The position numbers and the translations under genes were made by a program. The notes under the pieces are model-generated. The model had not been told where the DNA came from, made no database searches, and worked only from the letters and a program-made list of their open reading frames with translations. 64,000 nt of DNA, taken from contig CBDAOC010000016.1 in the NCBI GenBank assembly GCA_965197925.1, positions 1 to 64,000 on the forward strand, written 5' to 3'. Below, in pieces: positions 34,499-57,075 of this stretch. The stretch's first letter is position 1. The number at the start of each line of letters is the position of its first letter. The DNA is from Nitrososphaerales archaeon. Its GTDB lineage: Archaea > Thermoproteota > Nitrososphaeria > Nitrososphaerales > UBA213.

Positions 34499-34537
34499 GG
34501 TAACGCGTTATTCCCTTACACACGAGGACATTAAAAT
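34499..34537 (+). promoter_or_regulatory. Bipartite motif copy 1: GGTAACGCGTTATTCC-N17-TAAAAT
   Basis: Identical 16-mer at three sites with constant spacing to TAAAA(T/C). Confidence 0.7.
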
Positions 34538-35590: not shown

Positions 35591-35862
35591 AGCCGTTCCA
35601 GATAACTGAGAGACTAACTAGGGTCTAAAAGAAAGGAGAACGGTGTGGGCTGAGTAAAGTCTAAGAGGGCTAAGTACTAAGAACAGGATTCCTTCCAAAA
35701 AGGTAAAGCTGTGGAATAGTGACTTCCGATTTACTCAGCACAGTGAATCCAGATACCTAGCATCTACGATCATTGGATACATGATCTATGCTTATTACAG
35801 AACCAAACAGTGAGTGATATTTTACATTGAGTGTAAAATACGTATACCCATTCACTAGTATA

Positions 35863-35927
35863 TACGGAGCGAAGAATTTTGGGTTATTTTCTATACAATA
35901 CCTCCCATAATCACCAACTACTCCGTA
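35863..35927 (+). ncRNA. Y-RNA-like element 1 (minimal)
   Basis: TACGGAG-CGAAGA..TGGGTTATT...CCCA..TCACCAACTA-CTCCGTA. Confidence 0.7.
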
Positions 35928-35943
35928 GATTTACTCCTACTAT

Positions 35944-36069
35944 TGTGGGTCGAATGATAATTAGTTACTTAAAAATGCTGCCACCATTACTCTCTCCCCA
36001 AAAAGAATAATACTTTTTATCAAATAAGAAGTATTAGAGACCAACCTAATTACCACTTACTTACCTACA
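35944..36069 (+). ncRNA. Y-RNA-like element 2
   Basis: TGTGGGT-CGAATGATAATTAGTTACTT...CTAATTACCACTTACTT-ACCTACA with an internal hairpin. Confidence 0.7.
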
Positions 36070-36246
36070 ATAAAATGAATAATCCACTAATAGAAACACT
36101 CATGTACTTCCAAGACTTAATGTATAATCGCAACTACGAATTCTATGCAACAAATGGGTATTATGTGAGACTTCATATAAATGCAAACCCTACTCTAAAA
36201 AGAGAGGCGGCTAAAACATGGGTTGATATCAACGTAGAAAACAACA

Positions 36247-36323
36247 GAAGACGAGTCGAACGAGTATAGGTTATTATTACCATTTCAAATAAACACCCCT
36301 ATCTCATCAATTTATTCGTCTTC
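36247..36323 (+). ncRNA. Y-RNA-like element 3 (minimal)
   Basis: GAAGACGAGT-CGAACGAG.ATAGGTTATT...CCTATCTC..ATTT-ATTCGTCTTC. Confidence 0.7.
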
Positions 36324-36349
36324 ATATACTAACATACTATTAAAAAGCT

Positions 36350-36424
36350 GCAGAGCCGAATGAAATGGGTTATTCTTACCATTTATAAGAGCCAACTCTA
36401 CCCCATCTCAAACACTTGTTCTGC
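36350..36424 (+). ncRNA. Y-RNA-like element 4 (minimal)
   Basis: GCAGAGC-CGAATGAAATGGGTTATT...CCCATCTCA..ACTT-GTTCTGC. Confidence 0.7.
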
Positions 36425-36905
36425 CATCTAAGTATCACATTATACTCTGCGACACTAGCAGCCAAGCTAAGATAATGTCCACACGACATTGAGCACCGTT
36501 GAGCTAATGGTATTCATATAATCGCTTCGTCGCAGAACATAACGTGACACACATACACTTTGCATAAAACCCTACTAAAAATTCATCGTGAAAGAAACAT
36601 AGATCAAATAAAACACGAAATACAACGACTAATAAATCTTCAACATGCACTTCACCTGCACAACATCATACCACCATTAAAACGTAGACAAGATCGTATA
36701 ATGTCAAATATAGATTGATAACTCTTACAGATTATCACCACTTACTATGGGAATTTAGTAGAATAACATACAGCACACACTATGCTATTATTAGACACCC
36801 AATAAGTTGGTATCTACTAGATCTACATATTTTAATAGCAAAAGAACATAGAAAAATACACTGCAATATTTACCGATAATATGCAACAACAACAATAAAG
36901 GAGAC

Positions 36906-38014: not shown

Positions 38015-38063
38015 TAACCTACGAGCTGGGACACGTCCTAGTGTATACAGGAATACAAATCCG

Positions 38064-38072
38064 TGGTATACT
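38064..38072 (+). promoter_or_regulatory. Extended -10 sigma70-type promoter for the tRNA-Tyr operon
   Basis: TGGTATACT 8 nt upstream of tRNA-Tyr; similar TGNTANNNT at 38905 and 62444. Confidence 0.6.
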
Positions 38073-38080
38073 ATACAAAT

Positions 38081-38167
38081 GAGAGGGTCAGATAGCGGCA
38101 ATTCTAGTGGGCTGTAACCCCACCGACCGAGAGGTCTACGTTGGTTCGAGTCCAACTCCTTTCACCA
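38081..38167 (+). tRNA. tRNA-Tyr(GUA)
   Basis: GTGGG-CTGTAAC-CCCAC, long variable arm, A73 CCA. Confidence 0.92.
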
Positions 38168-38168
38168 T

Positions 38169-38242
38169 GGGCTAGTAGTCGAACAGAAAGACGCCGGGCG
38201 TGGAGTCCGGAGAAGGTAGTGCAATTCTATCCTAACCCACCA
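38169..38242 (+). tRNA. Non-canonical tRNA-like gene (anticodon UGG, G33, aberrant T-loop)
   Basis: GGGCTAG/CTAACCC acceptor, CCGGG-CGTGGAG-TCCGG, GGTAG-TGCAATT-CTATC, ACCA. Confidence 0.55.
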
Positions 38243-38243
38243 C

Positions 38244-38278
38244 GGGCAAGAGACAGGGAAACCTTCTCTTGCCCACCA
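38244..38278 (+). ncRNA. CCA-ended minihelix 1
   Basis: GGGCAAGAGA-C-AGG-GAAA-CCT-TCTCTTGCCC-ACCA. Confidence 0.75.
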
Positions 38279-38283
38279 ATCAT

Positions 38284-38360
38284 ACCGGATAAGACTCAAA
38301 ATTAGAGCTATGAACCTGATACGTTCGTGCGTACTAGTTGAAATACTAGTTCCGGTGCCA
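38284..38360 (+). tRNA. Non-canonical tRNA-Ile(GAU)-like copy 1
   Basis: ATGAAC-CTGATAC-GTTCGT 6-bp anticodon stem; ACCGGA/TCCGGT acceptor; GCCA. Confidence 0.6.
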
Positions 38361-38361
38361 T

Positions 38362-38395
38362 GGGAGAGTTCGGTTAACTCTGAGTTCTCCCACCA
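38362..38395 (+). ncRNA. CCA-ended minihelix 2
   Basis: GGGAGAGTTCGG-TTAACT-CTGAGTTCTCCC-ACCA (12 bp including G-U pairs). Confidence 0.7.
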
Positions 38396-38400
38396 TTTAT

Positions 38401-38479
38401 GTGAGGTAAGTCTCAACATTAGAGCTATGAACCTGATACGTTCATGTGTGAGAGGTGAAAGTCCTCTACCCTCACCCCA
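38401..38479 (+). tRNA. Non-canonical tRNA-Ile(GAU)-like copy 2
   Basis: Nearly the same D/anticodon arm as copy 1 but a different acceptor and T arm; CCCA end. Confidence 0.6.
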
Positions 38480-38633
38480 TTTACTGACAGAACCCTATAC
38501 GCCTCTTCATCATGCGCACCAAATAGGGTCATATCGTACCTAAGTATTGTGCACAAATATTTAGGTGACACAAAAACCCTGTCCTGGCCTCTGAGTATTC
38601 GGAGACCAGGACATTAATTATACCCACTATAAG

Positions 38634-38672
38634 GGTAACGCGTTATTCCACCGTGATATACCCTTTTAAAAC
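38634..38672 (+). promoter_or_regulatory. Bipartite motif copy 3: GGTAACGCGTTATTCC-N17-TAAAAC
   Basis: As copy 1; precedes structured non-coding block 38684-38877. Confidence 0.7.
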
Positions 38673-39363
38673 ACAGACTACCCCGCTCGTCACATTGTTC
38701 TCATAGACACCCTGAATTAACATGTAGCCTAGAACTACGACTGATTCCGGTTCATACCTCTGTATATTTAGAGAATGTAGAGATAAACCTCCTACTCGTG
38801 ACATTCAATGAGATAGCTGAGCTACTTCGTAAGTAACTTAGAGCGTGTGGGAGAGTGCCTCCACTCCGCGACACGCAACGCATACATTATCTAATAACAT
38901 AACATGCTATACTAAAAGAAAGGAGAAACTATGTTAGACTATTATTTAGAAAAAAACCACAACCACACCGATACACATGTAGTACAAGCATATCACGACA
39001 CAATTAACGAAGAGTTAGAACACCCACACACGTCGACCATCATTCTTCAACCTGAAGAGGCAAAAAAGTCTATGCCAGATAACGACGTAATAAATGATAT
39101 TTTAGAACACAGTATGCATCCAAAATTTGAAATGTATTAAATGTGACAACAAACCTAATACCAACGATTGCAGAGCAATACACAGTACTAGATTTCAAAA
39201 ACAGAAAAAGATTAAACAAGATATTAACAGGCTATAAAATTTTACAATATAGTGGCTACTTACGAACACAAATCACTGTACTAAAATTCAAAGACAACTC
39301 TGAACTAACTCATTGCAAAGGAAAATACTACATAACCTAGCGCACACAACAAGGATGTGCAAC

Positions 39364-54557: not shown

Positions 54558-54631
54558 CTGGGTGTCGTATAACGGTAGTATATTTGCTTTGGAAGCATAA
54601 GGCGAGAGTTCAATTCTCTCTTCCCAGACCA
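54558..54631 (+). tRNA. tRNA-Pro(UGG)
   Basis: TGC-TTTGGAA-GCA; C1-G72, A73; CCA. Confidence 0.85.
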
Positions 54632-55034: not shown

Positions 55035-55109
55035 GCATCAGTAACTCAGTGGAAGAGTATCGCTCTGATATAGCGAAGGCCGCTGGTTCGAGTCCAGCCT
55101 GATGTACCA
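55035..55109 (+). tRNA. tRNA-Ile(GAU)
   Basis: TCGCT-CTGATAT-AGCGA; CCA. Confidence 0.9.
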
Positions 55110-55252
55110 TTACGAGTCGAAGATAATTGGTTAATTAAGGAATATTGTAAGAGTGTCTACGGGCATTGACAATTACTCTATACAAATGGTGTTGCACCTA
55201 TCACCTGTATAGTGACATTATAGGGCTTCTCAATTTCACAACTTACTCGCAA
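55110..55252 (+). ncRNA. Y-RNA-like element 7 (multi-hairpin cargo)
   Basis: CGAGT-CGAAGATAATTGGTTAATT...CAATTTCACAACTT-ACTCG. Confidence 0.7.
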
Positions 55253-56937: not shown

Positions 56938-57075
56938 AACTAGAGTCGACAGATTTAGGTTATTCGACTTGTAATCGGGCGGCCGTGGGTTCGAATCCCA
57001 CCCCTAGCTCCATATGCTAGGGTAGCTCAGCGGTAGAGCACCAAAACTACCCTATTTCACCAACTTACTCTAGTT
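56938..57075 (+). ncRNA. Y-RNA-like element 9 containing a complete circularly permuted tRNA-Thr(UGU)
   Basis: CGA-CTTGTAA-TCGGG, T arm, CCCTAGC-TCCA-TAT-GCTAGGG and D arm GCTC-AGCGGTA-GAGC, all inside the scaffold. Confidence 0.88.

Follow-up and report, generated by a model that had tools for sequence, protein, structure and literature searches.

A phage tRNA-Tyr cassette with two natural minihelices and three irregular tRNA-like RNAs, and its proposed role in displaying acceptor-end decoys

The cassette and its genomic setting

The window analysed here is a stretch of 64,000 nucleotides, the first 64 kb of a 150,385-bp contig (C16) in a 2.9-Mb assembly. In this window we observed a tRNA-Tyr gene followed by 5 CCA-ended elements, in the order UGG element, minihelix 1, GAU-A, minihelix 2 and GAU-B, with spacers of 1, 1, 5, 1 and 5 nt counted from tRNA-Tyr. 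Minihelix and GAU element together form a tandem unit with a repeat distance of 117 nt. An earlier note on this DNA had described the UGG element and the 2 GAU elements as a trio; all 3 are real, but the 2 minihelices that lie between them had been overlooked, and the unit is one of 5 RNAs. The features of the region are as follows.

38044..38072, + strand: sigma70-like promoter candidate with extended -10 (9/12 matches), 8 nt ahead of tRNA-Tyr
38081..38167, + strand: tRNA-Tyr(GUA), of bacterial type, with a long variable arm; it opens the cassette (ARAGORN; Rfam 41.4 bits)
38169..38242, + strand: UGG element, a cloverleaf (local Rfam tRNA 40.8 bits), matched in the relatives X8 and X9
38244..38278, + strand: minihelix 1, a 13-bp stem containing one bulge, closed by a GAAA loop and ending in ACCA
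38284..38360, + strand: GAU-A, tRNA-like, 77 nt, G73, CCA; covered by the RNA-library contigs X4 and X6
38362..38395, + strand: minihelix 2, 34 nt, 12 bp, 6-nt loop, ACCA end
38401..38479, + strand: GAU-B, paralogue of GAU-A, 79 nt, C73, with a different but fully paired acceptor and T-stem
38493..38529, + strand: abiF-like hairpin (30.8 bits, family cut-off 37), uncertain as a member of the cassette

The promoter candidate is not significant by itself (5 sites found, against 5.4 in shuffles), and a -10 motif resembling its own is located also ahead of the contig genes at 71083 and 90946. A protein-coding reading of the region was rejected, the 3 overlapping ORFs being without a PHROG family at E<=0.1. 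The abiF-like hairpin is the best of 2 abiF matches in the 2.9-Mb assembly, and its stretch has a counterpart in X8 and none in X9; no adjacent AbiF/Abi_2 toxin gene was found among the ORFs scanned with Pfam, so that this is an abiF-like RNA without a detectable AbiF gene, and a possible antitoxin mimic. The non-coding segment beyond it (38537-38900) contains more stable hairpins (z -4.8 and -4.3, in two 141-nt pieces), which are partly kept in X8 and X9, and gave no further Rfam match. An intergenic motif of ~16 bases is present in 3 copies in the window, at 34501, 35554 and 38636, and likewise in 3 copies on the X9 contig.

Profile searches identified C16 as a phage, with capsid and tail-tube families, a family A DNA polymerase and a ribonucleotide reductase. 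Also on the contig are genes for Ro60 and for a TyrRS of bacterial type, and 31 standard tRNA genes. Both its long-armed tRNA-Tyr and its C1-G72 tRNA-Pro are of bacterial type. Since the remainder of the bin looks archaeal (a Pth2 match is located there), C16 is probably a bacterial-type phage contig that was placed in an archaeal bin through mis-binning. The cassette was found in 0/40 relatives of the host bin, and the 3 RNA runs that contain the cassette stretch are labelled as sponge metagenome. Pfam was queried with 189 ORFs of the contig, most of which are without any family; family searches also detected a PNKP-type phosphatase and a ligase, the latter scoring best as a DNA ligase. An odd tRNA gene is located at contig position 71167 (L002 7167-7243; 38.6 bits); its anticodon arm shows weak pairing, and ARAGORN does not call it.

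The Ro60 gene occupies contig positions 64225-65889, 26 kb from the cassette, and the likely partners of this Ro60 lie elsewhere in the window than the cassette. We observed a YrlA-like Y RNA at 56939-57074 on the + strand (YrlA model 35.3 bits, E 6e-6, cut-off 69), in which a terminal stem and a GNCGA-type motif are followed by T, closed acceptor and D stem-loops, and the first half of which also scores as a 33-bit tRNA in Rfam. Three to five elements resembling Y RNA or stem-bulge RNA of the animal type were also seen, at 35860-35929, 36247-36323 and 36349-36429, with weaker ones at 35940-36010 and 55108-55200. These share G..CGAA and GTTA motifs, are ~28 kb from the phage Ro60 gene, and match a nematode sRNA family with 29.6 bits and Y_RNA with 22.4 bits, both of which are under cut-off.

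Structure, strain variation and recurrence of the elements

U33 is near-invariant in tRNAs. The UGG element has G33 and a UGCAAUU T-loop, as the earlier note claimed, and it also has a C4.A69 mismatch, a G1-C72/A73 end, a 7-bp acceptor with a 5-bp T-stem, and an anticodon arm that may form 6 bp with a 5-nt loop. The 2 GAU elements share a 25-mer at 38302-38326 and 38419-38443 and resemble each other in the respects already noted for them: an anticodon stem of 6 bp, a D-stem with a bulge, a D-loop without GG, UGAAA T-loops, and G or C as discriminator. Their acceptor stems are of 6 bp, not 7, and the bulged 5-bp D-stem is stacked directly on the anticodon stem, giving a stack of 11 pairs without position 26. 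GAU-A combines its acceptor with a 6-bp T-stem and has a 7-nt anticodon loop with U33; in GAU-B the acceptor and T-stem are of 6 and 5, or 6 and (2+5), bp, and its top 3 pairs and C73 are those of the phage tRNA-His, with G-1 absent. The variable region of the trio is 2-4 nt and the D-loop 7 nt in length.

Minihelix 1 is predicted to fold with -23.1 kcal/mol (z -6.29; 0 of 200 shuffles as stable) and displays 3 G-C pairs, C4-G69 and A73, with no U-run. Minihelix 2, folded with one extra base, has z -3.87 (1 of 200 shuffles) and carries a terminator-like flag too. CCA-ended long hairpins are not enriched contig-wide (6 of 388 registers, ~5 expected); these 2 are set apart by their stability and by their location 1 nt past a tRNA-like CCA.

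The proposed GAU cloverleaves lie within 0.3 kcal/mol of the minimum free energy (for GAU-A, -19.7 vs -20.0 kcal/mol). When the whole cassette was folded, acceptor stems were kept only in both minihelices and GAU-A, with a pair probability of 1.0 for minihelix 1 and of 0-0.14 for the acceptor stems of the UGG element, GAU-B and tRNA-Tyr; since tRNA-Tyr fails as well, this fold does not discriminate. G55 is present in all 3 cloverleaves (in GAU-A, in a 6-nt T-loop register only) and in 0 of the 31 standard contig genes, and the D-loop GG, which all 3 lack, was seen in 30 of the 32 other genes listed. Judged from sequence, the UGG element could keep a G19-C56 pair, with U19-A56 as the possible counterpart in the GAU elements; an L-shape of the trio is therefore plausible. 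ARAGORN made no call for any of the trio and missed all 5 cassette RNAs; the local Rfam scan, the only Rfam scan to score the UGG element as a tRNA, found neither GAU element at E<=10 and missed 4 of the 5, and such genes are thus probably under-annotated.

GAU-A and GAU-B are identical at 39 of 43 core bases, and the only change in the anticodon stem is from U.G to U-A. Their acceptor and T arms had been described as different yet paired, and this is borne out by the pair count: among 11 acceptor and T-stem pairs (6 + 5), both partners differ in 8 and neither differs in 3, and no pair is broken. In the acceptor stem, whose strands are ~60 nt apart, 5 of 6 pairs changed together. Given 16 substitutions, the chance of this pattern is P ~3e-7, a value that should be discounted by 10-100x because the pairing register was picked by eye; the count rests on 2 paralogues, since no further full-length GAU homologue was found.

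Strains were compared in 4 of 10 runs, X4, X6, X8 and X9, with X1-X3, X5, X7 and X10 left out (small shares in the case of X5, X7 and X10). The X4 contig is identical across 38085-38369. An RNA-library contig from X6 matches 38186-38362 with 10 differences and 1 gap, and after GAU-A it continues into another element, in which the D-arm motif recurs with changes confined to its loop and is joined to a different acceptor and a different start of the anticodon stem. The X8 contig matches 38015-38243 and then has 468 letters, mostly dissimilar, against the window's 325 before 38569; the X9 contig matches 38077-38241 and jumps to 38631 with 16 other letters between, and contains neither minihelix nor GAU unit. 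From this comparison we infer that tRNA-Tyr and the UGG element are kept and that the rest is an exchangeable array. In X8, tRNA-Tyr plus the UGG element is more conserved than coding DNA (12 in 229, against 33 in 270 and 49 in 358), and in X9 it is as divergent as coding DNA (20 differences and 6 gaps in 165 nt, against 72 in 654). The RNA-library contigs over the cassette, all from a single study, extend into coding DNA upstream and may derive from DNA; they cannot be read as evidence of expression, and their absence over GAU-B carries no weight.

Searches for relatives of the cassette gave few leads. The exact GAU 25-mer had 0 matches in IMG/VR, and a D-arm motif scan returned 5 viral and 11 metagenome matches attributable to chance, none with acceptor plus CCA. 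Annotated phages gave short matches only, and the best 20 of 76 fall at tRNA-Tyr. An upstream protein of 230 aa has 10 homologues, which are without DNA context, no homologue in 3 locus collections, and hypothetical clusters only in the ESM Atlas; a homologue search with the capsid protein found none.

We scanned other loci for the minihelix layout with a pattern that places a short GG...CC-NCCA unit behind a tRNA end, which needs a standard upstream T-loop and would miss cases like that of the window. Among the matches listed, which came from 125 distinct viral loci, at least 5 were long minihelices, where interior shuffles predict 0.13; the criterion of at least 11 bp was chosen after the first positives had been seen, and a whole-locus shuffle (9 vs 1-6) was dropped as unfair. 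A fixed 34-35-nt scan yielded 3 of 85 distinct units in 114 viral loci (0.22 expected), all 3 of them already among the former 5; the 97 GTDB loci scanned gave 2 such minihelices in 95 units (0.12 expected). Two positives are doubtful, L162 being a prophage attachment site and L378 having no real tRNA upstream, and L092 is a longer hairpin of 16 pairs. In the Saccharimonadales genome of L348, a 13-bp hairpin with ACCA lies between tRNA-Ala and tRNA-Ile.

Two other phage lineages (L130; L149 and L151) possess minihelix-NCCA genes beside irregular tRNAs, from which we conclude that the form is rare but real. The order in L130 is irregular tRNA, CUA tRNA, 12-bp minihelix, a 126-nt CCA-ended RNA, 12-bp minihelix and CUA tRNA, all 1 nt apart, and its two 34-nt minihelices differ in the stem and share the loop. 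In L149 and L151 a covarying 7+5-bp minihelix is located between irregular AAU and AAA tRNAs; L149 has a second CCA-ended hairpin upstream. A Pth2 gene stands ahead of the irregular tRNA and minihelix array of L130 (L164 6673-7426), and Pth2 adjoins the minihelix clusters with 37 bits in L130 and weakly, with ~17 bits, in L149/L151; C16 gave no Pth2 match, and Pth2 is thus not part of the unit on that contig. No TROVE match was found in 5 minihelix-bearing records, all of which are fragments.

Possible roles of the cassette RNAs

The earlier note had argued that the elements are selected for a non-standard role and are not decaying, and named decoy, mischarging and non-ribosomal aminoacyl donor as candidates. 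Its first part stands. Stem pairing is kept while the GAU sequences change, the UGG element is kept in both related long contigs, a third member of the D-arm family exists in another strain, and the same layout occurs in other phages, all of which argue for selection. The consistent loss of decoding features (G55 in the trio, no D-loop GG, G33 in the UGG element) argues against a decoding role, and the cassette RNAs are very probably non-translating and under selection. Among the 3 roles, that of decoy fits best and that of donor is weakened.

We propose, with a probability of roughly 0.45, that the cassette RNAs are non-translating acceptor-end decoys against CCA-targeting toxins. A polycistron led by tRNA-Tyr would be cleaved at 5' ends and trimmed at 3' ends to the encoded CCA, yielding 5 small RNAs that would display a tRNA acceptor end and would not be built for the ribosome, the UGG element being the conserved part and minihelix plus GAU the duplicated, exchangeable units. 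These RNAs could then serve as decoy substrates for host enzymes that read the acceptor stem and CCA, sparing the working tRNAs of the phage; candidate enzymes are pyrophosphorylating toxins of the toxSAS/CapRel type, and nucleotidyltransferase or end-trimming toxins.

The only feature common to all 5 RNAs is a paired end with NCCA, and 2 of them consist of an acceptor end only. The toxSAS enzyme FaRel2 modifies the CCA end, reads pairs 1, 2, 4 and 5 and accepts a synthetic minihelix (passages of 10.1101/2024.07.05.602228), and the efficiency of that substrate, together with the 2 minihelices, favours a decoy role. The 5 acceptor ends all differ and relatives gain, lose or swap units, which also favours it, as does the recurrence of the minihelix/irregular-tRNA layout in L130, L149 and L151. 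The working phage tRNAs, judged by sequence, look altered at a site that FaRel2 reads: G1.U72 is present in 12 of the 31 standard tRNAs of C16, including all Val, Lys, Ile (5/5), Arg and Glu genes, and the UGG element and both minihelices have 3 G-C pairs plus A73. In a small, non-random control sample, 3 of 59 GTDB-locus tRNAs had G1.U72; a GGG/CCC-A end was seen in 4 of 4 Val/Lys/Ile tRNAs in GTDB loci and 2 of 17 in viral loci, again in small, non-random samples. However, G1.U72 is common in other phage tRNAs as well (33 of 257, viral loci), which counts against decoys. Nor does a decoy role explain the conservation of the GAU D/anticodon core.

Other readings must be weighed against acceptor-end decoys. 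The least unlikely of them takes the minihelices as processing punctuation, in the form of RNase P, stability or terminator hairpins, and the GAU elements as duplicated pseudo-tRNAs, the pairing of which would reflect templated near-palindrome repair. The terminator-like flag on minihelix 2, the lack of the module in X9, and a 117-nt tandem of minihelix and GAU alongside tRNA deletion remnants of similar size in other phages (L135, L148, L150) would suit such debris. It accords poorly with acceptor strands ~60 nt apart that changed together in 5 of 6 pairs, with an exact NCCA overhang on all 5 RNAs, with a minihelix 1 that has no U-run, and with a 34-nt minihelix form that exceeds expectation in other phages. 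Next in order, and also unlikely, the RNAs could be non-ribosomal aminoacyl donors in the manner of staphylococcal tRNA-Gly(NP), which a synthetase of host or phage would charge and a transferase would use. The CCA is intact on the cassette RNAs, the UGC T-loop and the 6-bp/5-nt anticodon arm fit tRNA-Gly(NP) (sections of PMC7826273), and the phage has a TyrRS of its own, G1-C72/A73 being Tyr determinants (parts of PMC9976931). But the 189 ORF queries to Pfam disclosed no Fem, cyclodipeptide synthase or other aminoacyl-transferase, among which a hidden one is possible, and 5 different acceptor ends do not specify a single amino acid; the U73 of Gly is absent. Improbable, in our judgement, is a role as Ro60 or RNA-repair partners, or as ligands of T-box, RtcR, PNPase or elbow-binding proteins, with the conserved D/anticodon core as a protein-binding site. 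The contig does encode Ro60, the PNKP-type phosphatase and a ligase, as in a jumbo-phage RNA-repair context (PMC7824862, in part), a CGAA core is present in the UGG D-arm, and the GAU core is 39/43 identical; yet Ro60 is distant, the motif is inexact, the arms do not follow a T-AS-D order, DNA ligase is the best-scoring family for the ligase, and YrlA-like (56939-57074) and Y-like (35860-36429) RNAs are located elsewhere.

Active translational tRNAs, as mistranslating or nuclease-resistant readers of Ile, His or Pro codons, appear highly improbable: GAU-A keeps an acceptor branch of 12 bp and U33 in a 7-nt loop, U19-A56 might stand in for G19-C56, and some allo-tRNAs do translate (passages of PMC5389517), but standard genes for Ile (55035, called by ARAGORN and Rfam) and Pro (54558, Rfam only, 53.9 bits) are present, as had been noted earlier, identity sets are missing, the 11-pair D/anticodon stack has no position 26, the UGG element has G33, and minihelices cannot decode. 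The least probable of all is a split tRNA-Ile, in which minihelix 1 would supply Ile acceptor determinants (it has A73 and C4-G69) and a neighbouring GAU RNA would present its anticodon (G34 A35 U36 A37) to IleRS in trans. Anticodon RNA in trans reportedly stimulates the charging of minihelices by IleRS. Such stimulation is absent from the passages of the tRNA identity review consulted (PMC9976931). A minihelix with C4-G69 or U4.G69 and A73 does stand behind a tRNA called Ile(AAU) in L149/L151, but the GAU RNAs carry a full acceptor and CCA of their own and C38 in place of A38, and minihelix 2 and the L130 minihelices are without the Ile set.

Beyond acceptor-end decoys in this cassette lies a broader and more doubtful proposal, that phages encode a class of stand-alone minihelix genes (~34 nt, 12 bp plus NCCA) and 6-bp-acceptor tRNA mimics, as exchangeable decoy libraries titrating CCA-targeting immunity toxins, with working tRNAs evading these through G1.U72. 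The cassette may add an abiF antitoxin mimic and so be an all-RNA anti-defence operon; abiF RNAs neutralise AbiF in trans (passages of 10.1101/2025.04.15.648962) and one has been found in a cyanophage (PMC9964418, in part). If true, such decoys would give phages an RNA-only means of countering toxins directed at the CCA end. In the laboratory, minihelices serve as models for tRNA recognition and for the ancestral tRNA, and their recurrence beside irregular tRNAs in other phages provides a short, cheaply synthesised test set for what the non-tRNA RNAs of phage tRNA clusters do.

Comparison with known systems

The trio does not consist of variants of tRNA-Ile and tRNA-Pro, as their anticodons had suggested in the earlier note, the acceptor determinants of both being missing. 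Bacterial Ile determinants include A73 and C4-G69, and G72 is a Pro determinant (parts of PMC9976931). The GAU elements have G73 or C73 and, as pair 4, G-C in GAU-A and A-U in GAU-B; their anticodon loop has G34, A35, U36 and A37 and, where the Ile set has A38, C at position 38. They also depart from tRNA-Ile(GAU) in having a 6-bp acceptor and no 7/5 cloverleaf, D-loop GG or TTC, and they were unseen by ARAGORN and by Rfam at E<=10. The UGG element was rejected as a tRNA-Pro(UGG) in that it has G1-C72, not C1-G72 as in the standard gene at 54558, and G33 in place of U33; A73, G35 and G36 are present.

Allo-tRNA was rejected as a class for all 3 cloverleaves, which have neither a 12-bp branch of the 8/4 or 9/3 kind nor the long V-arm and Sec-like D-arm with tetraloop (their variable region is 2-4 nt and their D-loop 7 nt). 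The polycistrons of irregular tRNAs and allo-tRNAs described by Mukai et al. (PMC5389517, in part) are, like the cassette, closely spaced irregular tRNA-like genes in which anticodon and acceptor identity are uncoupled; some of the irregular tRNAs are charged yet unused in translation, and a toxin-antitoxin link has been proposed. Stand-alone minihelices are absent from the passages of that paper, and no toxin-antitoxin gene adjoins the cassette. Staphylococcal non-proteogenic tRNA-Gly is a tRNA body withdrawn from translation, marked by UGC in the T-loop and by an anticodon arm of 6 bp closing a 5-nt loop (sections of PMC7826273), and the UGG element matches this signature, so that a likeness between them is proposed; the GAU elements have UGA in the T-loop and a 7-nt anticodon loop. 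Membership in that class was rejected on the anticodons (UGG and GAU), on A, G or C73 in place of U73, and on the lack of a Fem family among the Pfam-queried contig ORFs, and, unlike the staphylococcal genes as described in those sections, the cassette is phage-borne and strain-variable.

Tyrosine tRNA behind its own promoter is shared with the counter-defence against retron-Eco7/PrrC, in which phages use a strong-promoter tRNA-Tyr (passages of PMC11555353), a parallel that counts in favour of the decoy proposal. Rescue from retron-Eco7 required a functional anticodon and hence was by replacement, not by decoy action, and the published counter-defence phage tRNAs, unlike the cassette RNAs, are functional replacement tRNAs, as far as those passages go. 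For toxSAS substrates, acceptor stem and CCA suffice for toxin recognition, and the minihelices used there were synthetic (10.1101/2024.07.05.602228, in part). In the literature searched, with most subscription journals outside its coverage, neither natural phage minihelix genes nor natural non-decoding tRNA-shaped decoys came to light.

Mimicry of tRNA in a Ro60-encoding phage is shared between C16 and the YrlA/Y RNAs (parts of PMC4201824 and PMC12135203). YrlA is permuted, with T, AS and D inside the Ro-binding stem, and is no more than 4 kb from Ro60 according to the same parts, whereas the trio is in normal tRNA order and 26 kb from Ro60. A YrlA reading of the cassette was rejected: the motif GNCGAAN0-1G had no match on the + strand of 38081-38479, the UGG D-arm having 2 bases before the last G, and 0 of 6 YrlA model matches fell within the cassette.

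The oldest precedent for the cassette RNAs is provided by RNA C and RNA D of phage T4. These reportedly have CCA ends and are larger than the cassette RNAs. They are likewise small non-tRNA RNAs of a phage tRNA region (PMC3014915, in part). The cassette is, in these terms, a variant of the irregular RNAs of phage tRNA clusters, distinguished by 2 natural minihelices and with a function that is proposed only.
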